A model generated the notes under the pieces. It saw nothing but the letters and a program-made list of their open reading frames with translations. It was not told the origin of the DNA and did not search any database. Below are positions 3,883-14,604 of a stretch of 64,000 nt of DNA, piece by piece. Position numbers and translations under genes: made by a program. Within the stretch, counting starts at the first letter, position 1, and every line of letters begins with the position of its first letter. The stretch is from Devosia sp. (GTDB lineage: Bacteria > Pseudomonadota > Alphaproteobacteria > Rhizobiales > Devosiaceae): assembly GCF_040509215.1 (NCBI RefSeq), contig NZ_JBEVLL010000324.1, positions 5,857 to 69,856 on the forward strand, written 5' to 3'.

Positions 3883-4578
3883 CTACAGCGTCTCCGGCAG
3901 TGTAATCGAGCCGCTGGCCAGCCCTACGACGAGGGCGAGGAAGAGAAAAAGCGGCACGGCAATGACGAGCGTTGTGACCACGATGGTCGCCGATATGACC
4001 GGACGCAGCTTGGCGCTTTGGGACAGCCACAGCGTTTCGACCGCGACATACCAGACAAGACCAGCCACGAAAACGAGGCTGCCGGCCACGAGGATCGGCG
4101 TCGACAACTCGGCTTCGGACACGCACTGCAGGCCAAGGGTGACCGCAACCACAAAGGGCACGGCGGCGTAGCACTGGCTGTAGAAGATCGGCTTGAACGT
4201 GGTGCGCGTGAGCCGCGCGCGATTGGCCCTGAGCTGGATGATGCCGAAAACCAGCGGAAAGAGGCTGAAGGCCACAGCCCGGAAGATCAGGAGGTTCCAG
4301 TCATCGGCGAGAAGGCCCGTGAGGATGTGATCGCCGGCGGGGTCTGAGAGCTGGCCTACGCTGTGGAGGACAATGAGCGAAATGAGCAGCAGAACGGGTG
4401 GGCTCAGGCCGTCGTCGAACTGGCGATCTTCTTCTTCGAGCAATTGCCGCTCGGCATAAGAGAGCATGTGGAGCGGGCGGCGGACAATGCGCCACAGGGT
4501 CAGGGGATAGAAGACGAACCAACTGATGAGTTCGTAGAGCAATTCCTCAAGCGATTTGAGGAGCTTCATGAAATCCAT
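3883..4578 (-). CDS. Uncharacterised multi-pass membrane protein, last gene of the fliQ-fliR-flhB transcription unit
   Basis: 231-aa ORF starting 9 nt after the flhB stop. It has an N-terminal amphipathic segment followed by 4-5 hydrophobic helices. I recognise no family. Confidence 0.6.
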   Translation of the reverse strand: MDFMKLLKSLEELLYELISWFVFYPLTLWRIVRRPLHMLSYAERQLLEEEDRQFDDGLSPPVLLLISLIVLHSVGQLSDPAGDHILTGLLADDWNLLIFRAVAFSLFPLVFGIIQLRANRARLTRTTFKPIFYSQCYAAVPFVVAVTLGLQCVSEAELSTPILVAGSLVFVAGLVWYVAVETLWLSQSAKLRPVISATIVVTTLVIAVPLFLFLALVVGLASGSITLPETL

Positions 4579-4587
4579 TGAAGTGCC

Positions 4588-5673
4588 CTACCCCCGTGCC
4601 TTCCAGCTCTGGCCGTGCTTGAGGCGCATGACGAAGCCGATGATTTCGGCGACGGCCTTGTAGTGATCGGCCGGGATATCCTCGTCGACATCGACAGCGG
4701 CAAAGAGCGCGCGGGCCAGCGGCGGGTTCTCGATGATCGGCACCTCGTTTTCCTTGGCGACGGCACGGATACGCAGGGCTACGGCATCGGCACCCTTGGC
4801 GACGCATCGAGGCGCGCCCATGCCCTTGTCGTATTTGAGGGCGACAGCGTAGTGGGTCGGGTTGGTGACGACCACGGTGGCGTCGGGCACGGCCTGCATC
4901 ATGCGCTTGCGGGCGCGCTCCTGACGCAACTGCCGGATGCGACCCTTCACATGCGGGTCGCCTTCCATCTGCTTGTATTCTTCGCGGGTTTCCTGAACCG
5001 TCATCATCTGCCGCTTCCACCATTTCTGGCGGGTGTAGAAATAGTCGGCGCCGGCAATGACGGTCACCACGATGAGCACGGCGGTGAGGATTTTCACCCC
5101 CAGCTCCTGGAAATCCATCAGGATGATGATGGGATCGGCCGTCATCATGGTGTCGAGGCGGTCGCGCTCGGGCCAGACCACCATGACGACGACGATGCCG
5201 ACCACGGCGATTTTCAGGAGGCCCTTGCCGAAATTCACCAGCGCCTCGCTCGAAAACAGGCGCTTGGCCCCGGCGAGAGGTGAGATTTTCGAGAATTTCG
5301 GGGTGATCGGCTCGGTCGAGAACAGCGGCCGGTGCTGCACGAGATTGGCGAGGATGCCGCAGATATAGAGGACGGCCAGCGGCGCCAGCACCGCGCCGAT
5401 CAGGGAGAAAGCTAGGCCATTGAAGAAGGCCGAGAACCCTGCGCCGTCGACGTCGAAACGGTCGGCATTCATCATGATGATCTGCAAGGGATTGCTGATC
5501 TGCAGGGATACCCACGGCGCCATCGAGGCGAAGACGATGGTCGTGCCGACGAGCATGAACCAGGTGGTGACCTCCTGGCTCTTGGCGACGTCGCCTTTCT
5601 TGTGGGCTTCCTCAAGCTTCTTTTGGGAAGGATCTTCTGTTTTGCTGTCTTGCTCCGGGGCTTCGTCGGCCAT
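4588..5673 (-). CDS. flhB: Flagellar type III export switch protein FlhB
   Basis: 361 aa. Contains the NPTH autocleavage motif (VVVTNPTHYAVALKY) and a typical FlhB N-terminus (EDPSQKKLEEAHKKGDVAKSQEV). Confidence 0.95.
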   Translation of the reverse strand: MADEAPEQDSKTEDPSQKKLEEAHKKGDVAKSQEVTTWFMLVGTTIVFASMAPWVSLQISNPLQIIMMNADRFDVDGAGFSAFFNGLAFSLIGAVLAPLAVLYICGILANLVQHRPLFSTEPITPKFSKISPLAGAKRLFSSEALVNFGKGLLKIAVVGIVVVMVVWPERDRLDTMMTADPIIILMDFQELGVKILTAVLIVVTVIAGADYFYTRQKWWKRQMMTVQETREEYKQMEGDPHVKGRIRQLRQERARKRMMQAVPDATVVVTNPTHYAVALKYDKGMGAPRCVAKGADAVALRIRAVAKENEVPIIENPPLARALFAAVDVDEDIPADHYKAVAEIIGFVMRLKHGQSWKARG

Positions 5674-5676
5674 GGA

Positions 5677-6447
5677 CTACCCCCGCCACATGGCCAGATG
5701 ATTTTCGAAGGCGGAGAGATACCACCCCATCATCATCATGAGCAAAAGTGCAAACAGAACCAGGCCGGCCAGGATATTGGCGGGCATGAGGATGAAATAG
5801 ACCTGCAGAGCAGGCATGAGGCGCGACAGGATGCCGGCGCCGAGGTTGAAGACGAGGCCGAAGACGATGAAGGGCGCCGACATCTGCACGCCCACCGAGA
5901 AAGCCGAGGCCACGGTCTTCAGCGCCAACTGCATGGCGTCTTCCGACATGATCGGCATGGTCGGCGAAAAGACGTCGTAGCTGTCATAGATTGCCGCCAG
6001 CGCCATATGGTGCAGGTCGGTTGCAAAGATCAGTGTGATGCCGAGGAATGAGAGGAAGCTGGTGAAAACGGCGCTCTGCTGGCCCTGCTGGGTCGGATCC
6101 GCCGACATGGCGCCCGAAAGGCCGATCTGGAAGGCGATGACAGCGCCGGCCACCTGCGTCGCCATGGTGGTGATGCGCACGATGCTGCCGATGATGAGGC
6201 CAACGGCGAGCTCATGGAACAGCAGCGCCACCATGCCCGGAATATCGGGTGGCATGGGGGGCATGATGCTCGAAAGCAGCGGATAGAGCACGAAGGTGAA
6301 GGCGAGCCCGAATGCGAGGCGCAGCCGCATCGGGATAGTGTCTTCGCCAAGCGCCGGCAGCAGCATCAGCATGGCGCCGATACGCGCGAAGAGAATGAGA
6401 TAGGTGAAGGCCGCGCCGGGCGCCCAGTCGAGGTTGAGCGTAAACAT
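5677..6447 (-). CDS. fliR: Flagellar export apparatus protein FliR
   Basis: Hydrophobic FliR-like protein starting MFTLNLDW. Its ATG overlaps the fliQ stop by 1 nt (TGATG). The track ORF 5677..6720 is over-extended into fliQ. Confidence 0.9.
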   Translation of the reverse strand: MFTLNLDWAPGAAFTYLILFARIGAMLMLLPALGEDTIPMRLRLAFGLAFTFVLYPLLSSIMPPMPPDIPGMVALLFHELAVGLIIGSIVRITTMATQVAGAVIAFQIGLSGAMSADPTQQGQQSAVFTSFLSFLGITLIFATDLHHMALAAIYDSYDVFSPTMPIMSEDAMQLALKTVASAFSVGVQMSAPFIVFGLVFNLGAGILSRLMPALQVYFILMPANILAGLVLFALLLMMMMGWYLSAFENHLAMWRG

Positions 6448-6713
6448 CAGCCGCCGACGATGATCATGTCGACAACCCGCGTCATATAGGCCGACATGGT
6501 CGCGCCGAGAAACGGCAGCGTCAGCAGCATGGTGACGAAGATGGCGATGATCTTGGGAACGAAGACCAGGGTTTGTTCCTGGATTTGCGTCAGGGCCTGG
6601 AACAGCGCGATGACGACGCCCACGACAAGGCCGACAAGCATCATCGGCAAGGACACGATGATCAGCGTCCAGATACCTTGATTGGCGATGTCGAGCACTT
6701 CGGCGCCGGTCAC
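6447..6713 (-). CDS. fliQ: Flagellar export apparatus protein FliQ
   Basis: 88 aa with two TM helices and the typical FliQ sequence (LVVGVVIALFQALTQIQEQTL). GTG start preceded by GAGGGAA. Confidence 0.95.
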   Translation of the reverse strand: MTGAEVLDIANQGIWTLIIVSLPMMLVGLVVGVVIALFQALTQIQEQTLVFVPKIIAIFVTMLLTLPFLGATMSAYMTRVVDMIIVGG

Positions 6714-6866
6714 GACTCAATTCCCTCTGCGGTCACGCGCAAATGGTAACTGATTCCTGAATGGGCAGCGAATTCTAAGCCAGAGTGCCGCACAACTAAC
6801 CGATGTCCCCCGGCCTTGGCCGGGGTGACAATCAAGAGGGGGACGGCGTCAGATCTAGTCCGACGC

Positions 6867-7361
6867 TTAGATCGGCATGCTCATGATCGATTCATACGAC
6901 TGGATCACGCGGTCACGGATCGTCACGATGCTTTCGATCGCAAATTCGGTCTGCGACATGGCGGTGACCATATCGACCACGTTGGCCTTGCCATTGACCA
7001 TGTCGATGGCCATCTGGTCCGAATTCCGGCCCTGATCGACGACACCCTGGACCGACTGGGCCAGCATGGCGGCGAAGTCATTGCCACCATTGCCCGGATT
7101 GGTACCGAGCTGCGCACCGGGCATCGAAGCCTGGGTGAGCATGCGGGTGGCCGCGTCGCTGAGTGTCGCGATGGCGGTGGGGTCGGCAGCGCGACTGCTT
7201 TCAGTCACGGACTGGACCGACTGGGCCAGCATCTGCGCGAAGTTGGGACCGCCGGCAACGCCGGCGATGGCTGCTTCCGCCTCAGGGCGGCTGAGCTGCG
7301 ATGCAAGGCGGCTGGCATTGCCATAGGCCGCGGCTGCGATATTGAATGGTGTTGACGCCAC
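6867..7361 (-). CDS. fliE: Flagellar hook-basal body protein FliE (elongated, with internal partial duplication)
   Basis: The C-terminal ~70 aa match FliE (DFAAMLAQSVQGV...VVDMVTAMSQTEFAIESIVTIRDRVIQSYESIMSMPI). It lies in flgB-flgC-fliE order. GTG start. Confidence 0.85.
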   Translation of the reverse strand: MASTPFNIAAAAYGNASRLASQLSRPEAEAAIAGVAGGPNFAQMLAQSVQSVTESSRAADPTAIATLSDAATRMLTQASMPGAQLGTNPGNGGNDFAAMLAQSVQGVVDQGRNSDQMAIDMVNGKANVVDMVTAMSQTEFAIESIVTIRDRVIQSYESIMSMPI

Positions 7362-7381
7362 GATGATAGCCCCCAGAACCG

Positions 7382-7792
7382 TTAGCCGCGCAGGATGTCG
7401 AGCGTTTGCCCGAGCATCTGGCGAGTGACGGAAACCACGTTGAGATTGGCCTCATAGCTGCGCTGGGCCTCGCGCATGTCCATCGTCTCGATCAGTGTGT
7501 TGACGTTGGGGTATTGAACATAACCATTCGCATCGGCGGCCGGGTGGCCGGGCTCGTAGCGATTGTTGAAGTCGCTCTGGTCATAGGCAAGCTTGCCCAT
7601 GCTCACGACGCGACCGCCGAGCTCGTTGTTCATCACCGTTTCAAAGGTGGGAACGCGACGGCGATAAGGCTCGCCGCCCGGCGTCGACGCCGTGGAGTCG
7701 GCGTTGGCAATATTTTCGGCGATGACGCGCATGCGGGCCGACTGTGCGTGCAGACCCGTGGCGGCGATGCCGATAGAAGTGTTGAAATCCAT
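7382..7792 (-). CDS. flgC: Flagellar basal-body rod protein FlgC
   Basis: 136 aa with the conserved rod N-terminus (RMRVIAENIANADST) and C-terminus (YEANLNV). Confidence 0.95.
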   Translation of the reverse strand: MDFNTSIGIAATGLHAQSARMRVIAENIANADSTASTPGGEPYRRRVPTFETVMNNELGGRVVSMGKLAYDQSDFNNRYEPGHPAADANGYVQYPNVNTLIETMDMREAQRSYEANLNVVSVTRQMLGQTLDILRG

Positions 7793-7807
7793 GCTTCAAG
7801 CCCTTTC

Positions 7808-8215
7808 TTATGCGGTCTTGCCGAGTGCGGTCTTCAAGATTTTGACCGATTTCTGGTAGAGGGAGGTCGCGGCCTGATAGTCCATCATATTGGTCGTGAC
7901 CTTCATCATCTCGTCTTCGAGGGTGATGCCGTTCCCCTTCGGCGTGATCTCGAAATTGACCATCTTGTCGTCGGTAAAGCTTGTGCCGCCGCCGATAGAG
8001 GTCGAAAAGTGCCTGGGCTGCGTCGTCGCAGTGTTGACGACCGGCGCCTGAACGACGCTGAAACGGTCTTCGAAATTATACTGCTTCAGGTCGCGCCCCT
8101 TGAAGCCAGGATTGTCAGCGTTGGCGACGTTCTCGGCCAACAGACCCTGACGGGCCTGATGCCAACGCATCTTGTCCGTCAGCGCCGAAAAGACCGGCAT
8201 GTCCAGCAACCCCAT
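7808..8215 (-). CDS. flgB: Flagellar basal-body rod protein FlgB
   Basis: Rod-protein motif LLAENVANADNPGFKGRDL. ATG 8215 has a GGAG 8 nt upstream and is preferred over the TTG at 8236 used by the track. Confidence 0.9.
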   Translation of the reverse strand: MGLLDMPVFSALTDKMRWHQARQGLLAENVANADNPGFKGRDLKQYNFEDRFSVVQAPVVNTATTQPRHFSTSIGGGTSFTDDKMVNFEITPKGNGITLEDEMMKVTTNMMDYQAATSLYQKSVKILKTALGKTA

Positions 8216-8266
8216 CGCGACTACTCCTGAGTCCAAGTCAGATGGGCAAAACCTGCCTAATCAGGG

Positions 8267-8281
8267 TTAAAGAAGAGTTAA
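8267..8281. promoter_or_regulatory. Candidate CtrA binding site (TTAA-N7-TTAA)
   Basis: Exact TTAAagaagagTTAA in the AT-richer divergent flgB / fliO-fliP intergenic region, 52 nt upstream of the flgB ATG. Confidence 0.5.
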
Positions 8282-8491
8282 TAGTGACCCCATGCTGTCC
8301 TAAAATGCCTCGCATTCTGCATGATTGCCTGATTTGACTGGGCAGAAAATGCCCGACAGAGTCGGGAAGGCCACTCTAAAGCGCGTCGCGATCTTTCAGA
8401 TTCGCTCTCCACGCTTTAGTCTTTTGTTGTTACGCATGCCTCGCCCGAGACCGGCGACCACCTTCGGGCACATGCTTAGGAGTTAGAATCA

Positions 8492-9145
8492 GTGCAGTTC
8501 ATCACCAGCCTCTTCGGCGGAAGCGGCAATACCTACCTGACCGCACTCTTCGCCCTTGGCGTCGTCATCGTCCTCATCCTTCTGGGCGTGTGGCTGCTCA
8601 AGCTGCTGTTCAGCGTATCGAGCAATGGCGTGCGCGGCCGCAACAAGCGACTCGCCATCGTTGACAGCCTCGTCGTCGACCAGAAGCGGCAATTGCTGAT
8701 CATTCGGCGCGACAATGTCGAACATTTGATCCTGACCGGCGGCAATCAGGACCTGGTGGTGGAATCCGGCATCGTGCCGCCCGAGCCGCCGGCGGCGCAG
8801 ACGACCCGCCGCCCGGTGCCGATGATCGGCCGGAAAGCCAGCAATGACGCCAAGCCCGTCGAAACCAAGCCCGCAGCCGCCGTCGTGACCACCGTCGCCG
8901 GCCCCGGCGCTGCCATTGACCGTGCCCGCGAAGCCAACAAGGCACGCGAACAGGCGCCGGGCCGCTCGCTGCGCCACACGGGCCTGCTGCGCCCCGTCTC
9001 CACGCAAGACACGCTGCCAGCCGGGTATAAGCCGGACATTTCACCCGCGACCGCGACCGACTCAGCTACAGAGGACGCAGGACGAGCGGTTAACGAAAGC
9101 GTAACGCGTGATCACGAAGCGCAGGGCGAAAACAACCGAAACTAG
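8492..9145 (+). CDS. fliO: Flagellar biosynthesis protein FliO (with long Pro/Ala/Thr-rich C-terminal tail)
   Basis: Single N-terminal TM helix followed by the alpha-type FliO core (RLAIVDSLVVDQKRQLLIIRRDNVEHLILTGG). Sits immediately upstream of and overlaps fliP. GTG start. Confidence 0.75.
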   Translation: MQFITSLFGGSGNTYLTALFALGVVIVLILLGVWLLKLLFSVSSNGVRGRNKRLAIVDSLVVDQKRQLLIIRRDNVEHLILTGGNQDLVVESGIVPPEPPAAQTTRRPVPMIGRKASNDAKPVETKPAAAVVTTVAGPGAAIDRAREANKAREQAPGRSLRHTGLLRPVSTQDTLPAGYKPDISPATATDSATEDAGRAVNESVTRDHEAQGENNRN

Positions 9146-9902
9146 TGCTGCGCGGGCGCGCCTCAAGAAGCGCGCCCTGATCGGACTCATCGTAGCGGCG
9201 GGGCTTTCGCTCGCTGCCGTGGGCGTTGCCCAGGCGCAGGAACTCTCTATCGGCTTTGGCGACGACACCGCTCTCGCCGAACGCGCCATCCAGCTCATCG
9301 GCCTTCTCACCATCCTGTCGCTGGCCCCGTCCATCCTTGTGATGGTGACGAGCTTTACGCGCATCGTCGTCGTGCTGTCGCTGCTGCGTACGGCTATCGG
9401 CCTGCAGACCGCGCCGCCGAACTCGGTGATGATCTCGCTGGCGCTGTTCCTCACCTTCTTCATCATGCAGCCGACGCTGGAAGAGAGCTACAACAACGGC
9501 ATCGCGCCGCTGCTGGCCGGCGAAATCGAGATTTCGGAAGCCTTTGAGCCCACGGTTGCGCCGCTCCATGCCTTCATGCGCGCCAATGTGCGCGAGCAGG
9601 ACCTGTCGCTGTTCTATGACCTGACGGAAGCCGAAGTTCCGGCCGAGCCGGAAGCCATTCCGCTGCAACTGCTGATCCCGGCATTCCTGATTTCAGAACT
9701 GCGACGCGCCTTCGAAATCGGATTCTTGCTCTTCCTGCCCTTTGTCATCATCGACATGGTCGTCGCCTCGGTGCTGATGAGCATGGGTATGATGATGCTG
9801 CCGCCCGTGGTGATCTCCCTGCCCTTCAAGCTGATCTTCTTCGTGCTTGTGGATGGGTGGTATCTGGTGGTCGGCTCACTGGTGCGAAGTTTTACCAGCT
9901 AG
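9108..9902 (+). CDS. fliP: Flagellar export apparatus protein FliP
   Basis: Signal-like N-terminus and conserved FliP sequence (LTILSLAPSILVMVTSFTRIVVVLSLLRTAIG; FLLFLPFVIIDMVVASVLMSMGMMMLPP). Confidence 0.95.
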   Translation: MITKRRAKTTETSAARARLKKRALIGLIVAAGLSLAAVGVAQAQELSIGFGDDTALAERAIQLIGLLTILSLAPSILVMVTSFTRIVVVLSLLRTAIGLQTAPPNSVMISLALFLTFFIMQPTLEESYNNGIAPLLAGEIEISEAFEPTVAPLHAFMRANVREQDLSLFYDLTEAEVPAEPEAIPLQLLIPAFLISELRRAFEIGFLLFLPFVIIDMVVASVLMSMGMMMLPPVVISLPFKLIFFVLVDGWYLVVGSLVRSFTS

Positions 9903-9912
9903 CTCGCGAGAG

Positions 9913-10308
9913 TCAGGCGCCGTATTCGGCGTCCGTGACCTGTTCCATCCAGTCGACGACCTTGCCATCCTTGACCTCCTGGAGCGCGATGTGGGTCATG
10001 GCGTTGCCCGGAGCGGCGCCATGCCAGTGCTTTTCGCCGGGAGCGAACCAGACGACATCGCCGGGACGGATTTCTTCCACCGGTCCGCCAAGCCGCTGAA
10101 CGCGGCCAATGCCGGAAGTGACGATCAGTGTCTGTCCGAGCGGGTGGGTGTGCCAGGCTGTGCGCGCGCCGGGCTCGAAGGTGACATGCGCGCCCTGAAC
10201 ACGCTCGGGCGCGAAGGGATTGAACAGCGTGTCGATGCGGACGGTGCCGGTGAACCAGTCTGCCGGACCCTTTGCCGACGCATTGGTGCCTACGCGAATG
10301 ATTTCCAT
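9913..10308 (-). CDS. Cupin domain protein (small conserved WHTHP-type cupin)
   Basis: 131 aa with cupin motifs [16 protein letters not shown] and PGEKHWHGA. Confidence 0.85.
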
Positions 10309-10398
10309 GATGCTTTCCTTCTTGATGCCGCCTCGACCTCGGGAGCCCGGGATCTCCGTCGGCCCTTAGCGGTCGTTAGGTCAACATCCGATTTTGGT

Positions 10399-10426
10399 GT
10401 GCATTCGCGCAAGAGCGCGAATGCAC
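10399..10426 (-). terminator. Perfect 12-bp stem-loop directly after the poly-Asp protein gene
   Basis: GTGCATTCGCGC-aaga-GCGCGAATGCAC, 8 nt downstream of the stop at 10434. There is no clear U-tract. Confidence 0.4.
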
Positions 10427-10433
10427 GAGATGA

Positions 10434-10694
10434 TCAGTCGTCGTCGTCATCGTCGTCATCATCGTCCCAACGATCGTCATCGTCGTCGTCCCAATCGTCG
10501 TCGTCACCCTGCCAGGTCGGCTTGCCATGGCGCCACCAGAATGGGCGGTCGTCGTCATCTGCAACGAGGATGATGCTGGCGTCGGGTTTCGAAACGACAG
10601 GCTGCAATGTTTCGATCCCGAGGCCAAAGCTGACGCTTGGGGCCACAAGCAACATCGCCAGAGCAAAGCCGATCGGCTTGAAAATCGTCTTCAT
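10434..10694 (-). CDS. Small secreted poly-Asp/Trp protein (86 aa)
   Basis: Start MKTIFKPIGFALAMLLVAPSVSFG is a signal peptide, with a strong RBS GAGAGGAG 8 nt upstream. The C-terminus is DDDDRPFWWRHGKPTWQGDDDDWDDDDDDRWDDDDDDDDDD*. The track ORF 10434..10949 is an over-extension through the upstream gene. Confidence 0.65.
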   Translation of the reverse strand: MKTIFKPIGFALAMLLVAPSVSFGLGIETLQPVVSKPDASIILVADDDDRPFWWRHGKPTWQGDDDDWDDDDDDRWDDDDDDDDDD

Positions 10695-10710
10695 TGGTGG
10701 GGCTCCTCTC

Positions 10711-11103
10711 TCAGTCGTCGTCGTCAGACGAATTGGACGAGGAATTCGAGCTCGAATTCGATGAGGAATTGTTGCTCGAATTGGAAGACGAGTTGCTCGA
10801 CGAGTTCGAGGAGCTGTTGCTGTTCGAGTTCGACGAACTGTTGGAGTTCGAGTTGGAAGAGCTGTTCGAGTTCGAATTCGACGATGAATTGCTGCTCGAA
10901 TTGGAGCTCGACCCCCAAGGGTTCTTCCAGGTGCCGTTGTTGAGGTCATAGAGCAGCCCGCCGCGCTTGGAGTCGGCGACCTGCAGGTGTTGGGCCGGGG
11001 CTAGCCCTGGCGCGGGATCGGCGACGCCATAGGCTTGGGCCGGCGCATTTGCAGCCATGAGGCCGGCAACGGCGAGGGTAGTGATGGTAATGGTCTTGCC
11101 CAT
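10711..11103 (-). CDS. Secreted Ser/Asn-repeat protein with C-terminal DDDD (130 aa)
   Basis: Start MGKTITITTLAVAGLMAANAPAQA is a signal peptide with an AQA cleavage site, and AAAGGA is upstream. A 62-residue (SSSN/SNSN)n tract is followed by DDDD*. The next gene starts 16 nt downstream. Confidence 0.65.
   Translation of the reverse strand: MGKTITITTLAVAGLMAANAPAQAYGVADPAPGLAPAQHLQVADSKRGGLLYDLNNGTWKNPWGSSSNSSSNSSSNSNSNSSSNSNSNSSSNSNSNSSSNSSSNSSSNSSNNSSSNSSSNSSSNSSDDDD
10726..10911 (-). repeat. Coding low-complexity tract (SSSN/SNSN)x~15
   Basis: 12-nt periodic Ser/Asn codons that use mixed synonymous Ser codons (TCG, AGC, TCC, TCA, TCT, AGT). All six frames are open here. Confidence 0.9.
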
Positions 11104-11149: not shown

Positions 11150-11176
11150 AGACGCAGGACATCGCCATCTATTCCC
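11150..11176 (-). promoter_or_regulatory. Candidate ECF-type promoter upstream of the Ser/Asn-repeat and poly-Asp gene pair
   Basis: The minus strand reads GGGAATAG-N14-CGTCT. The -10-like element ends 46 nt before ATG 11103. Confidence 0.45.
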
Positions 11177-11198: not shown

Positions 11199-11225
11199 GG
11201 GAATAAGCGGAGGGCCGATCCGTCA
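11199..11225 (+). promoter_or_regulatory. Candidate ECF-type promoter upstream of the uncharacterised gene 11254..11958
   Basis: GGGAATAA-N14-CGTCA, 28 nt before the ATG. It lies back-to-back with the 11150..11176 site. Confidence 0.45.
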
Positions 11226-11253: not shown

Positions 11254-11958
11254 ATGTTCGCCAGCCCAAAAGCCAAGATCCGCTTTCTCTGCACGCCGGA
11301 AGACGAGGGCGTCATCGCTCCGCCAATACCGTCAAAAGGCCACCTGCCCGACTGGTTTCGCAAACTGCCGGCCGTCGACCAGAGCAAGCTGGCGCCCAAC
11401 GATACCGGCCTCACGGTCAAGCGCTGCATGCCTTTCCTCGATGCGATGATGACCGGCTACATCATTCCGCTGGCCGCAACCGTGCGTCTCGAAATCCGCG
11501 ATGGCGGCAAGACGGTGACGGCCGGCTGGGATTTTGACAGGACCATGGTCAGCAATCACGGGAGCCATCAGGTCGCCGGTCATCCGCAAGGCGACATGCC
11601 GCCCTGCAAGTTCCACAATTATTGGTCCATTCGCACGCCCAAGGGTTGGAGCTGCCTGTTCGTACCGCTGCTGAACCGGCCCAATCCGGTCTTCGAGCCG
11701 GTGGCCGGGATCGTCGACACCGACACTTATGTCGCCCCGATCCATTTTCCGTTCTTCGCGCGTGGCGCCGATGGCCTGCACGAAATCGAAAAGGGCACGC
11801 CGCTGATCCAGGTGATCCCCTTCAAGCGCGACAGCACCATGCTCGAAGCCGAGATCGGCAGCGAATCCCGCAGCGAGGCTGCCGAGCGCCATAAAGTGTC
11901 CCGCAATACGATCGCGAGCACCGGTTGGTACCGGCGCTTTGCACGCGCTGCCCGCTGA
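11254..11958 (+). CDS. Conserved uncharacterised protein (no signal peptide; possibly DUF6065-like)
   Basis: 234 aa starting MFASPKAKIRFLCTPEDEG, with RBS AAGGAG upstream. Contains KRCMPFLDAMMTGYIIPL and His-rich HGSHQVAGHP. The family assignment is from memory only. Confidence 0.7.
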   Translation: MFASPKAKIRFLCTPEDEGVIAPPIPSKGHLPDWFRKLPAVDQSKLAPNDTGLTVKRCMPFLDAMMTGYIIPLAATVRLEIRDGGKTVTAGWDFDRTMVSNHGSHQVAGHPQGDMPPCKFHNYWSIRTPKGWSCLFVPLLNRPNPVFEPVAGIVDTDTYVAPIHFPFFARGADGLHEIEKGTPLIQVIPFKRDSTMLEAEIGSESRSEAAERHKVSRNTIASTGWYRRFARAAR

Positions 11959-11960
11959 AA

Positions 11961-13250
11961 TCAGCAGGGCGACGGGATGCGCACCAGCCCCCAGCCGAAG
12001 ATCGCATCCCGGCCGGGCTCACCGAGATCGAGGCTGGCCTCGATAAGTGCATCCATGGCGGCTGGCGGCTCGACACCCTTGGCCAGGGCTGCCGCCAGCG
12101 CCGTGGTGACGAAAGGTACGGCGAAGGACGTGCCGGTCTGGGGGCGGATGCCGGAGATCGAGGCGGCCGTGGAGATATCGACGCCGGGCGCGGCAAAACT
12201 CACATGTTCGCCCTGCACTGCCCGGCGATAGATGTTTTGCCGGCGGTCGACGGCAGTCACCGCGACGACATCGGGATATGCGGCGGGAAACATGGCTTCG
12301 GCCCGCGGCCCCGCATTGCCGACTGCCGCGACGACCGGGATGCCGGCAGTCTGGATTCGAGAGATGGCGTCGGCGAGAATGGCATTGTCGGGCCCGGCAA
12401 GGCTGAGGCTGGCAACATCGACCTGAGCCGTGGCCAGACGATCGAGTGCTTCGACCAAGGCGAATACATCGCTTCGCTCGTCCTGACCAACGCGGCCGAA
12501 GGGATCGACGACGAGCACCTCGGCAGCGGGCGCCAGGCCAGGGACCCGACCGCTGCCAACGAACATGGCGACGACGGCGGTGCCGTGTTTCAGCTCCGAC
12601 GGCTCCGCATCCACATTGCCGATCGTTTCGAGCGTCAGGCGCGCTTCGCTCAGCATCGGATGGTCGAGATTGACGCCTGTATCAATGACGCCGATATGAG
12701 GCGCGAAAACGCAGGTAGCGCCGACGGAAACCGGCGGCCAATCGACGGCCTCCCAATGTTCGCACATGGCGCCTTCGCATCCGATGGGAACCGCCTGGCT
12801 TCGATAGTAGGAATTGGGCGCGACGAGCGCTTCGGGCGAGGCTTTGCGCACGGCAGCCAGGGCTGCTTCGACATCGAGATCGTCGGGTAATTCCAGCAGC
12901 AGCCGGCCACTGCTTTCCGAGACGATCAGAAAACCCGCGGCGAGCAGGACGTCCCTGCCCGCAGCATCGAGGCTCGCGACCACCACTTGATCGTCGGCCT
13001 GTTCGGGCAATGGCACAGCGACCGGCGCAGGACGGCGGACGATCCGGCCGCCCATCCATGGTTCGTCGTCATCATCGTCATCGTCGCTCGAACCGGAGTC
13101 CCAATCGTCGTCATCGTCACCGCCATCATCGTCGTCATCGTCCTGCGCATAAGCCGGGGCAACGAGAAGGGGCGAGGCGAGGAGCCCGGGGACTGCAACG
13201 AGACCGAGCGCGACGAGCAAGGCGCGGAGCGAAGTGGTGGGGCTGGACAA
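11961..13250 (-). CDS. Secreted S8 family serine peptidase (subtilase) with poly-Asp N-terminal extension
   Basis: Catalytic triad contexts IGVIDTGVNLDHP (Asp), KHGTAVVAMF (His) and TGTSFAVPFV (Ser). The signal peptide ends APAYA, followed by QDDDDDDGGDDDDDWDSGSSDDDDDDDEPW. TTG start with AAGGAAG upstream. Confidence 0.9.
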   Translation of the reverse strand: MSSPTTSLRALLVALGLVAVPGLLASPLLVAPAYAQDDDDDDGGDDDDDWDSGSSDDDDDDDEPWMGGRIVRRPAPVAVPLPEQADDQVVVASLDAAGRDVLLAAGFLIVSESSGRLLLELPDDLDVEAALAAVRKASPEALVAPNSYYRSQAVPIGCEGAMCEHWEAVDWPPVSVGATCVFAPHIGVIDTGVNLDHPMLSEARLTLETIGNVDAEPSELKHGTAVVAMFVGSGRVPGLAPAAEVLVVDPFGRVGQDERSDVFALVEALDRLATAQVDVASLSLAGPDNAILADAISRIQTAGIPVVAAVGNAGPRAEAMFPAAYPDVVAVTAVDRRQNIYRRAVQGEHVSFAAPGVDISTAASISGIRPQTGTSFAVPFVTTALAAALAKGVEPPAAMDALIEASLDLGEPGRDAIFGWGLVRIPSPC

Positions 13251-13285: not shown

Positions 13286-13312
13286 AGACGTCTGAGACAT
13301 CAGAATATTCTA
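13286..13312 (-). promoter_or_regulatory. Candidate ECF-type promoter upstream of the S8 peptidase
   Basis: The minus strand reads TAGAATAT-N14-CGTCT, 35 nt before TTG 13250. Confidence 0.4.
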
Positions 13313-13339: not shown

Positions 13340-13367
13340 GGGAATAAACCCCATCACCCATCCGTCT
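13340..13367 (+). promoter_or_regulatory. Candidate autoregulatory ECF-type promoter upstream of the sigma factor
   Basis: GGGAATAA-N15-CGTCT ending 8 nt before ATG 13376. It lies back-to-back with the 13286..13312 site. Confidence 0.45.
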
Positions 13368-13375
13368 TCCAGCGT

Positions 13376-13876
13376 ATGAGCACCATAGCTTCCAGTCTCG
13401 TTCCCATGCTGCCACGCCTCCGGCGCTATGCGCTCGCCCTTTGCAAGGTGGGCGACATCGCAGACGATCTCGTGCAGACCGCCTGCGAAAAGGCGCTGGC
13501 CAGCCAGCGTCAAACGCTCGACCTCTCCTTTGACGCCTGGATGTTTCGCATCCTGCGCAATAGCTGGATCGACCGGCTGCGCCGCCAGAAGACGCGCGGC
13601 GAGGAGATCGACATCGTCGAGCACAGCGATATTGGCGCGTTCGATGGCTCCTCCATTCCGGAAAACCGCCTGGTGCTGAAAAAGACCATGGAGGCCATCG
13701 GCCGCCTGCCGCAGGACCAGCGCGAGTTGCTGCTGCTGGTGTGCGTGGAAGAGCTGAGCTATCGCGACGCGGCCGAGGTGCTCGACCTGCCTATCGGTAC
13801 AGTCATGAGCCGGCTTGCGCGGGCCCGTCGAAAACTCGCCGAGGATGTCGGCATAGAAGCGGGGCAATTGCTGTGA
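13376..13876 (+). CDS. ECF (sigma-70 family group IV) RNA polymerase sigma factor
   Basis: 166 aa with region 2 (DLVQTACEKAL...WMFRILRNSWIDRLRRQK) and region 4 (LPQDQRELLLLVCVEELSYRDAAEVLDLPIGTVMSRLARARRKL). The track ORF 13010..13876 is over-extended. Confidence 0.9.
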   Translation: MSTIASSLVPMLPRLRRYALALCKVGDIADDLVQTACEKALASQRQTLDLSFDAWMFRILRNSWIDRLRRQKTRGEEIDIVEHSDIGAFDGSSIPENRLVLKKTMEAIGRLPQDQRELLLLVCVEELSYRDAAEVLDLPIGTVMSRLARARRKLAEDVGIEAGQLL

Positions 13877-14604
13877 AGGACCAAAGCATGCAGCGCGATT
13901 TTTCCGACGAAACCCTCATGGCCTTCGCCGATGGCGTTCTGGATGAACCTCAGTTTTCGCAGGTCGCCGAAGCCATTGAAAGCGATGAGGCCCTGGCGAC
14001 GCGGCTCGAAACCCTTGTCACCGGCTCGACGCTTGCTCGACGTGGGTTTGACGAACTCCTTGCGCCGGTCTCGCCGGAGTTGGAGGCGGCCGTGCGGCAG
14101 ACGATCAAGGCGGCTGAGCGCAAGCCCTTCTGGAAATTCTCCTGGGGCAACTGGCTTTATCCTGCGGGCGCATTTGCTGCCGCAGCCGTGGCCGTCGTCG
14201 TCGCTATTCCGTCCCTGGGCCTGTGGCAGGCGTCTTCAGCGCCGTCATCCATGGCCGAGCTTGGTGGTGAGGAGGTTGCTGCTGTGCTCGACACCCTGCC
14301 CTCTGGCGGTACAACCACCTTGGCGAGCGGCACCGTCATCAATCCAATCGCCACCTTCACCAATGGCGACCAGCAGGTCTGCCGAGAGTTCGAGACCGAG
14401 GGCAGCGCCAGTTATCTCGTGGTTTCCTGTCGGGCTGGTTCGTCCTGGTCTGTTCAGCTTGCACTTGCGACCGCAAACGAAGATGGCAACTACCGGCCGG
14501 CGTCAGGTTTTGAAGTGTTGGACGCCTATCTGCAAACGGCTGGTGCAGGAGAACCGCTTGTCGGCGATGACGAGTTGGCGGTTCTTCGCAGCCCCTCACG
14601 CTGA
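13873..14604 (+). CDS. Anti-sigma factor (single-pass membrane protein with periplasmic domain)
   Basis: The GTG start overlaps the sigma stop (GTGA); the alternative is ATG 13888. It has an N-terminal anti-sigma-like helix region (FSDETLMAFADGVLDEP), one TM helix (AGAFAAAAVAVVVAIPSLGLW) and a ~130-aa C-terminal domain. Confidence 0.75.
   Translation: MKDQSMQRDFSDETLMAFADGVLDEPQFSQVAEAIESDEALATRLETLVTGSTLARRGFDELLAPVSPELEAAVRQTIKAAERKPFWKFSWGNWLYPAGAFAAAAVAVVVAIPSLGLWQASSAPSSMAELGGEEVAAVLDTLPSGGTTTLASGTVINPIATFTNGDQQVCREFETEGSASYLVVSCRAGSSWSVQLALATANEDGNYRPASGFEVLDAYLQTAGAGEPLVGDDELAVLRSPSR

Follow-up and report, generated by a model that had tools for sequence, protein, structure and literature searches.

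The DNA analysed here is a window of 64 kb (the whole stretch studied, 64,000 nucleotides of Devosia sp. contig NZ_JBEVLL010000324.1). It contains a module of six genes encoding an extracytoplasmic function (ECF) sigma factor, a putative anti-sigma factor, a divergently oriented S8 serine protease, a DUF6065 protein and two small low-complexity proteins with predicted export signals, named P1 and P2, which are the main subject of this study. The module has four predicted transcription units, one of which is P1–P2. The features of the locus are collected in Table 1. An earlier note on this DNA, made without database searches, had described two open reading frames (ORFs) with a 16-nt gap, their ribosome-binding sites (RBSs), the two tracts and a 12-bp hairpin; all of these, with their coordinates, were recovered, and the strand, which the note had left out, is the minus strand.

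Table 1. Genes, predicted promoters and RNA hairpin of the six-gene module, in window coordinates
Feature	Position	Strand	Description
Hairpin 3' of P2	10399..10426	minus	perfect 12-bp stem, 4-nt loop, no U-run
P2 gene	10694..10434	minus	86 aa; predicted signal peptide, ILVADDDD, RPFWWRHGKPTWQG, (D4-10[R]W)n poly-Asp tail
P1 gene	11103..10711	minus	130 aa; predicted signal peptide, 40-aa N-terminal region, 62-aa (SSSN/SNSN)n tract, DDDD end
P1–P2 promoter (predicted)	11175..11151	minus	GGAATAGATGGCGATGTCCTGCGTC; GGAATA-N15-CGTC, 48 nt before the P1 ATG
DUF6065 promoter (predicted)	11200..11224	plus	ECF26-type, 30 nt before the gene
DUF6065 protein gene	11254..11958	plus	234 aa, no signal peptide; weak Pfam hit
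S8 serine protease gene	11961..13250	minus	Pfam Peptidase_S8, 92.6 bits; N-terminal poly-Asp/Trp extension AQDDDDDDGGDDDDDWDSGSSDDDDDDDEPW
S8 promoter-like site	13287..13311	minus	AGAATA-N15-CGTC, one mismatch in the -35 box
Sigma/anti-sigma promoter (predicted)	13341..13366	plus	ECF26-type, 10 nt before the sigma ORF
ECF sigma factor gene	13376..13876	plus	166 aa; Pfam Sigma70_r2/r4_2
Putative anti-sigma factor gene	13888..14604	plus	238 aa, single-pass; assigned from position, one hydrophobic segment and 33% identity to EcfR6

The P1 precursor consists of MGKTITITTLAVAGLMAANAPAQA, removed by the predicted cleavage, and a mature chain that begins with YG (YGVADPAPGLAPAQHLQVADSKRGGLLYDLNNGTWKNPWG) and continues into the Ser/Asn tract of 62 residues and the terminal DDDD. 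P2 is composed of MKTIFKPIGFALAMLLVAPSVSFG before the predicted cleavage and LGIETLQPVVSKPDASIILVADDDDRPFWWRHGKPTWQGDDDDWDDDDDDRWDDDDDDDDDD after it; the peptide IILVADDDDRPFWWR is part of this protein, and its C-terminal end is DDDDRPFWWRHGKPTWQGDDDDWDDDDDDRWDDDDDDDDDD. The signal peptides were called by eye from the Lys residues of the n-region, the hydrophobic core and the AQA or SFG ahead of the cut, with cleavage predicted between AQA and Y in P1 and between SFG and L in P2; these n-, h- and c-regions are conserved among homologues. According to composition counts, mature P2 (about 62 aa) contains 25 Asp residues (40%) and has a net charge of -21, and Ser and Asn make up 62% of mature P1. 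Within the window, tracts of such composition occur only in P1, P2 and the adjoining S8 protease. Both proteins are extremely hydrophilic and predicted to be disordered. The AlphaFold2 (AF2) model of P2 has a predicted local distance difference test score (pLDDT) of 58 and a predicted template modelling score of 0.19, with a small β-hairpin (41–44/53–56, IILV/WWRH) as the only structured element; because of this low confidence the model was not taken into the fold search.

The RBSs are AAGGA for P1 and GGAG for P2, each located 8 nt upstream of the ATG. The 61-nt stretch 10380–10440, which holds the hairpin, has a folding energy of -27 kcal/mol (z = -5.4 against shuffled sequences). The hairpin was not flagged by a terminator scan because it is not followed by a U-run; hence, it is not a canonical terminator. 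Scans for terminators and sigma-70 promoters gave nothing relevant at the locus, and a search of the 9.5–14.8 kb region against Rfam gave no match.

The coding status of the Ser/Asn tract requires some care. All six frames are open across it, so an open frame alone is no proof of coding, and the SSSN frame shares its third codon positions with an open antisense frame that contains ELEF/ELLD repeats. As a consequence of these shared positions and of the open antisense frame, gene callers often pick the antisense ORF. The Ser codons of the tract are of six kinds (20 TCG, 9 AGC, 8 TCC, 3 TCT, 2 TCA and 1 AGT); the DNA repeat is degenerate (68–85% matches) and the protein repeat is nearly perfect. 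The mixed synonymous codons had been put forward as a sign of selection on the protein; the six codons are there, but the argument drawn from them is weaker than supposed, since the third positions are shared with the antisense frame.

Stronger evidence comes from the regions outside the tract. P1 orthologues were compared in the loci L001, L005, L007, L009 and L023, and the non-repetitive N-terminal part of P1 has a ratio of nonsynonymous to synonymous substitution rates (dN/dS) of 0.11–0.35 in Devosia-type orthologues. For P2, the ratio is 0.07–0.30 over the full length and 0.13–0.38 over the first 62 alignment columns. Both genes are kept in five orthologous Devosia-type loci; frame-disrupting indels, which the earlier note had proposed to look for, were sought in these loci, and only in-frame length changes were found. 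Further evidence for coding comes from homologues: in S. meliloti, the P1 homologue has an AAGGAG RBS and, likewise on the SSSN strand, a clear-cut rho-independent terminator, and a P2-like gene at another locus (L020) also has a terminator. Judged from the conserved signal peptides, the low dN/dS, the in-frame indels, the promoter and RBSs, and the terminators of the homologues, P1 and P2 are real genes under purifying selection at the protein level, which bears out the idea that these low-complexity, predicted-exported proteins are selected as proteins.

The opposite view holds that P1 is not coding as read, that the tract is a degenerate DNA repeat and that any real product is the antisense ELEF/ELLD ORF. 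The six open frames and the coinciding third positions would agree with it, as would the choice of the antisense frame both by the PGAP annotation pipeline and in the original S. meliloti annotation (SMa0146). However, the antisense ORF, which in Devosia stops 13 codons past the tract, lacks a conserved start, stop, signal peptide or promoter, whereas in the sense ORF the signal peptide is conserved, an RBS and an ECF promoter are present, and dN/dS is well below 1 outside the tract. The sense-strand terminators of S. meliloti and L020 also speak against it, as does the downstream gene P2, which is non-repetitive and clearly coding. This view as a whole is extremely improbable.

Sequence features place P1 in an unrecognised protein family encoded at the DUF6065/ECF/S8 locus across Hyphomicrobiales. 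Members have a signal peptide, a short N-terminal region and an (SSSN/SNSN)n tract of at least about 40 residues, and their genes are located beside the DUF6065 gene. All of these features are found in P1 and in the members from Agrobacterium, Rhizobium, Sinorhizobium, Mesorhizobium, Phyllobacterium and Bauldia. Ahead of the tract there is often a hydrophobic-x-Ala-Gly motif (IIVAGN, FILAGN). The C-terminal end differs among genera: it is DDD in Agrobacterium and Rhizobium, a basic REYRPGKLWHTGR in Sinorhizobium, DRGWSRNWRR in Mesorhizobium, DRGRWRWR in Phyllobacterium and a true PG_binding_1 domain (60.7 bits) in Bauldia. Thus, the polar tract is the conserved part of the family and the acidic tip is not.

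Family members were found by six-frame scanning of loci reached via DUF6065 and S8. A word-indexed homologue search with P1 itself returned 3 proteins only, because the gene is often missed or called antisense and low-complexity words swamp the candidate list. Neither P1 nor P2 has a Pfam match, and the NCBIfam hit of P1 to the MSCRAMM adhesin ClfB (NF033845) is spurious, being confined to the repeat region and scoring 18.9 bits against a cut-off of 999. Rhicadhesin, a small Ca-binding adhesin of Rhizobiaceae, was considered as a counterpart of P1 and set aside, as the likeness extends to size and acidity only and the tails of the family are either acidic or basic. In R. leguminosarum bv. viciae 248 (L016, 5814–6253), a frameshift within the repeat breaks the (SSSN)n-DDD gene in two.

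P2 has few relatives. A word-indexed search of a 5.8-billion-protein database found 11 homologues, and an exhaustive profile search gave 11 hits among 1.84 billion representative proteins, all unnamed. Together with the lack of any real match in Pfam or NCBIfam, this agrees with the earlier impression that the proteins have no characterised counterpart. The P2 homologues share a hydrophobic-Ala-Asp motif (ILVAD, IVVAD, IQLAD), a basic/aromatic core RPFWWRHG.P.WQ and repeated D4-7(R)W units, poly-Asp being conserved in all of them. Their genes lie inside the module wherever enough context was read, and P2 is, as far as these sequence searches go, rare and confined to this module.

Five or all six of the genes occur in the same order in the loci L001, L005/6, L007, L009 and L022/23, the flanks of which are unrelated; the module is portable and self-contained, remaining intact in differing genomic surroundings. 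At L020, a P2-like gene directly follows the S8 gene and has its own promoter motif as well as the terminator mentioned above. In Rhodobacterales (Parasulfitobacter and Pseudaestuariivita; L002, 5596–7179, and L003, 5608–7176), the locus contains the sigma factor, the anti-sigma factor and an S8 protease with poly-Asp, without P1, P2 or DUF6065. On a plasmid of Phyllobacterium zundukense (L018, 4429–5702), a DUF6065 gene and an (SSSN)n gene stand together with no sigma factor or protease gene within 5 kb, indicating that this pair can travel without the remaining module.

The transcription units of the module are preceded by similar promoter motifs. The pattern GGAATA-N14-18-CGTY has three exact matches in the 64 kb, against 0.52 expected, and three matches were reached in 2 of 100 shuffled sequences; all three precede units of the cassette, with N15 or N16 spacers. 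The predicted P1–P2 and DUF6065 promoters are arranged back to back with their -35 boxes about 25 bp apart, and divergent pairs across loci are separated by about 25–31 bp. The site before the S8 gene, AGAATA in the window, reads GGAATA in L005, L007 and L022. The same four sites, identically spaced, are present at all Devosia-type loci covering the complete cassette, and GGAATA-type sites are also present before each unit in S. meliloti and before the (SSSN)n gene in Agrobacterium, which likewise has an RBS. Since the sigma factor promoter lies so close to the first ATG, the mRNA would be nearly leaderless or translation would start from Met11 (13406), an alternative start that one gene caller used in L009 (156 aa).

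These motifs connect the locus with the RpoE6–EcfR6 system of S. meliloti, located on pSymA (SMa0139–SMa0148) and assigned to group ECF26 (Lang et al. 2018, PMC6180224). The Devosia proteins are 59% (sigma factor), 68% (DUF6065, SMa0148), 47% (S8 protease, SMa0142) and 33% (anti-sigma factor, EcfR6) identical to their orthologues in S. meliloti 2011. ECF26 loci typically have a sigma/anti-sigma pair divergent from a serine protease gene, and the consensus promoter has a -35 GGAATA and a -10 GT (PMC6180224); the window has this layout, and the GGAATA/CGT motif is shared. The strongest RpoE6 targets in S. meliloti are SMa0139, SMa0142, SMa0146 and SMa0148, of which SMa0148, the DUF6065 gene, is the most strongly induced (log2 6.5), and the promoters of SMa0148 and SMa0142 have been mapped experimentally as RpoE6-dependent (PMC6180224). 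Of the four motifs in the S. meliloti 2011 cassette, three match exactly the RpoE6-dependent promoters mapped by rapid amplification of cDNA 5′ ends (5′-RACE) and RNA-seq (PMC6180224). The fourth motif, GGAATA-N15-CGTT before the SSSN ORF, was previously unreported.

The counterpart of P1 in S. meliloti is a small signal-peptide-(SSSN)n gene at the position of SMa0146, which is annotated on the opposite strand and was never described. The SSSN ORF opposite SMa0146 is located at 5869–6351 on the minus strand of L019 (S. meliloti 2011 pSymA) and at 5858–6223 of L015, and is accompanied by the motif, an RBS and a terminator. SMa0146 was upregulated on RpoE6 overexpression (log2 2.3; PMC6180224). 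The published SMa0146 RACE primers carry SSSN-sense-strand sequence and, hence, probed the antisense annotation, which fits the absence of a reported SMa0146 transcription start site. In the literature, SMa0146 was found in Lang et al. 2018 only (PMC6180224). The two loci differ in that S. meliloti has one small protein with the basic tail and no P2, whereas Devosia has the DDDD-tailed P1 together with P2.

A GGAATA-N15-CGTT motif is also present just upstream of a glycerate kinase gene adjoining the module in Agrobacterium tumefaciens (L017, 7828–7852) and Rhizobium leguminosarum (L016, 7866–7890); this sequence match suggests that the gene is an extra regulon member in these two species. The name RpoE6 is also used for a sigma factor of Azospirillum; to judge by the abstract of that work, its gene belongs to a flagellar cluster and the protein seems to be distinct from the RpoE6 considered here.

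The small proteins resemble the N-terminal part of the protease encoded next to them. In every genus, the S8 protease begins with a signal peptide or anchor, a short spacer, an (A/V/L)-x-(A/S) motif, a poly-Asp or Asp/Gly stretch and an (E/R)P-aromatic-GG-basic motif; examples are AQDDDDDDGGDDDDDWDSGSSDDDDDDDEPWMGGR in Devosia, LASDDDDDDWDDDDDDWDDDDRPGFGGF in Bauldia and LALADDDDDDDGG...GWSGGK in Sinorhizobium. No genus examined lacks the acidic extension. Trp residues occur within the acidic tract in Devosia and Bauldia, and the Bauldia protease contains DDDDDDWDDDDDDWDDDDRPGFGGF, a pattern like that of P2. The Rhodobacterales homologues have 50–60 consecutive Asp/Glu residues after the signal or anchor. 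P2, the SSSN proteins and the S8 N-termini align collinearly: the small proteins have the signal, the spacer, a hydrophobic-x-Ala motif, a low-complexity tract and an (E/R)-P-aromatic-G-basic motif, but they end there, without the pro-domain or catalytic domain. P2 and the SSSN proteins may be regarded as putative free-standing copies or mimics of the S8 extension. The link with the S8 and ECF genes, which had been only a guess, proved to be stronger than supposed, with conserved synteny, common promoter motifs and a common N-terminal layout.

Taken together, the sequence data favour the interpretation that P1 and P2 are exported proteins of the ECF regulon that are functionally coupled to the S8 protease, with a probability of roughly 0.6. 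Since both appear to copy the N-terminal layout of the protease, it is the most likely partner. Release of the sigma factor by the anti-sigma factor would induce the protease, DUF6065 and P1–P2 together. Exported P1 would be a long tether, hydrated and neutral, that ends in an acidic tip, and P2 a small hydrophobic/aromatic hairpin (IILV...WWRH) bearing a polyanion. Both would act in the periplasm, a location suggested by the PG_binding_1 domain of the Bauldia member, on or beside the protease, either as its substrates or by mimicking its acidic extension, or competing with it, in trans. Binding to divalent cations or to basic surfaces would probably be the way in which the poly-Asp stretches work. 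The precise biochemical role assigned to P1 and P2 is, however, a guess and tentative. A more specific proposal, namely that the small proteins are trans-acting disordered decoys or tethers that set the activity or location of the protease and, thereby, the cleavage state of the anti-sigma factor, is possible but doubtful; if true, it would constitute a feedback element not yet described in ECF sigma signalling, with a low-complexity polyanion or polar chain as the regulatory currency. The literature search found no alphaproteobacterial link between an ECF anti-sigma factor and a subtilisin-like protease.

Several observations weigh against coupling of P1 and P2 to the protease. The Rhodobacterales loci indicate that the small proteins are dispensable for the core module. 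The likeness between the small proteins and the S8 extension consists of short motifs and biased composition, without statistical support, and the assignment of Sec signal peptides to P1 and P2 rests on inspection by eye. The array probe for SMa0146 targets the annotated antisense orientation, so that the reported induction is not clean evidence for an SSSN mRNA. The frameshifted copy in R. leguminosarum 248 may be a pseudogene, unless the repeat was misassembled. Finally, deletion of rpoE6–ecfR6 in S. meliloti had no phenotype in tests of symbiosis or envelope stress (PMC6180224).

Other functions can be envisaged for proteins of such composition. Poly-Asp tails bind Ca2+ in calsequestrin and biomineralisation proteins, and P2 and the DDDD tip of P1 might, independently of the protease, bind Ca2+, Mg2+ or other metals in the periplasm with high capacity and low affinity, so as to buffer or sequester cations, or might adhere to mineral surfaces. 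The Asp content and charge of P2 are in line with this, as is the conservation of poly-Asp throughout the P2 homologues and the protease extension, and cation binding is plausible, on compositional grounds, for P2 and the S8 poly-Asp stretch. It does not suit the P1 family, which keeps the Ser/Asn tract and elsewhere has an Arg/Trp tail or a peptidoglycan-binding domain in place of the acidic end, and mineral or cation binding, one of the roles first suggested for the pair, is not supported as their general function. Moreover, none of the genes conserved with the module encodes a transporter or has a metal-related role, and simple chelation does not explain the regular Trp/Arg spacing and the conserved ILVAD...RPFWW core; a protease-independent cation sink is, overall, unlikely. 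An N-x-S glycosylated Ser-rich repeat protein, also raised in the earlier note, was rejected, since conservation is limited to the six module genes, which include no glycosyltransferase gene, and each locus has different flanks.

The extreme hydrophilicity and predicted disorder of P1 and P2 could also be those of stress-protective periplasmic hydrophilins, hydrated chains that would shield envelope proteins or peptidoglycan under desiccation, osmotic or pH stress, by analogy with E. coli Asr or late embryogenesis abundant (LEA)-type proteins, with the protease as a parallel quality-control effector. The overlap of the RpoE6 regulon with the general-stress RpoE2 regulon in S. meliloti (PMC6180224) and the member with a peptidoglycan-binding domain fit this idea. 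Yet stresses that activate RpoE2 did not induce the RpoE6-specific targets (PMC6180224), P1 and P2 are unrelated in sequence to known hydrophilins, and neither the conserved hydrophobic-Ala motif nor the likeness to the protease N-terminus is explained, which makes such a role rather improbable. Arg/Trp-rich motifs are a recurrent feature where low-complexity tracts end, RPFWWRHGKPTW in P2 and the tails GRWRWR, GWSRNWRR and RPGKLWRVR in other genera, and these cores could, in principle, be membrane-active cationic peptides kept inert by poly-Asp or Ser/Asn pro-regions and released by the S8 protease, which is predicted to be co-regulated. Anionic pro-pieces neutralise cationic peptides in this way in eukaryotic defensins. 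The cores are, however, very short and poorly conserved between genera, P1 and the members from Agrobacterium and Rhizobium end in Asp without a basic tail, no immunity or export gene accompanies them, and the release step is hypothetical; masked peptides of this kind are very unlikely. A precursor of a ribosomally synthesised and post-translationally modified peptide with S8 as its leader peptidase (LanP or PatA type) was rejected, as no modifying enzyme was found and the precursors carry predicted Sec-type signals; the protease scores far below the NCBIfam cut-offs for PatA (43.5 against 421 bits) and QhpE (80 against 165 bits).

Known proteins offer partial parallels to P1 and P2. The calsequestrin C-terminal tail and the eukaryotic poly-Asp biomineralisation proteins likewise have long Asp runs in a protein of the secretory pathway, but they have no sequence or fold relation to P2, which is bacterial, 62 aa long, has periodic Trp/Arg residues and is encoded in a sigma factor/protease module. 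Asr of E. coli is, as P1 and P2 are predicted to be, a small, Sec-exported, disordered, low-complexity and stress-regulated protein, possibly processed by a periplasmic protease; it differs in being basic (rich in Lys, His and Ala) and under the control of PhoBR/RstAB, and has no homology to P1 or P2. The Ser-Asp adhesins of the MSCRAMM type, such as ClfB, and the serine-rich repeat glycoproteins also have a Ser-rich repeat tract as a stalk, whereas the host of P1 is Gram-negative, and P1 has no LPXTG motif, ligand-binding domain or dedicated glycosyltransferase.

The ECF26/RpoE6 module itself has already been catalogued and is common on the chromosomes and megaplasmids of Sinorhizobium, Rhizobium, Agrobacterium, Mesorhizobium and Devosia; it carries two uncharacterised small-protein families. 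The small exported-type (SSSN)n protein, often missed or annotated on the wrong strand, is a new component of RpoE6-type modules, joined in Devosia by the poly-Asp/Trp protein P2, and the annotation of SMa0146-type genes is corrected. P1 and P2 appear to be rare examples of bacterial exported-type, near-homopolymeric disordered proteins maintained by selection, and small proteins mirroring the acidic N-terminus of the protease give testable handles on the role of the module.

Less can be said about the remaining proteins of the module. The S8 protease has the catalytic D/H/S motifs by sequence (VIDTG, HGTAV, GTSFAVP) and is 96% identical to a protein from a metagenome-assembled genome of Devosia sp.; an I9-type pro-domain was not confirmed by Pfam. 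The anti-sigma factor has no Pfam hit, its periplasmic part included. DUF6065 has 1739 homologues, the best 120 of which are at least 65% identical across genera and include several named DUF6065 by NCBI; the best match (99% identity) is from D. riboflavina. Comparison with PDB sequences gave no meaningful match, and no mention of DUF6065 was found in the literature. Its AF2 prediction (pLDDT 79, one of five models confident) has a weak likeness to the β-barrels of dUTPase and dCTP deaminase (template modelling scores of 0.32–0.40 for the query); as the fold search gave only these weak matches, a cupin-type Asp/Asn hydroxylase was dropped as a candidate.

Downstream of P2, the module is bordered by a cupin gene (9913–10308, minus strand), which is outside the conserved module. 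Immediately on the low-coordinate side of this gene, a flagellar export/rod cluster (4547–9902; FlhB-, FliR-, FliQ-, FliE-, FlgC-, FlgB- and FliP-like ORFs, identified by inspection) is present, which the module does not keep as a neighbour at other loci. The cupin protein itself scores 198 bits against the NCBIfam model of (R)-mandelonitrile lyase (cut-off 140).

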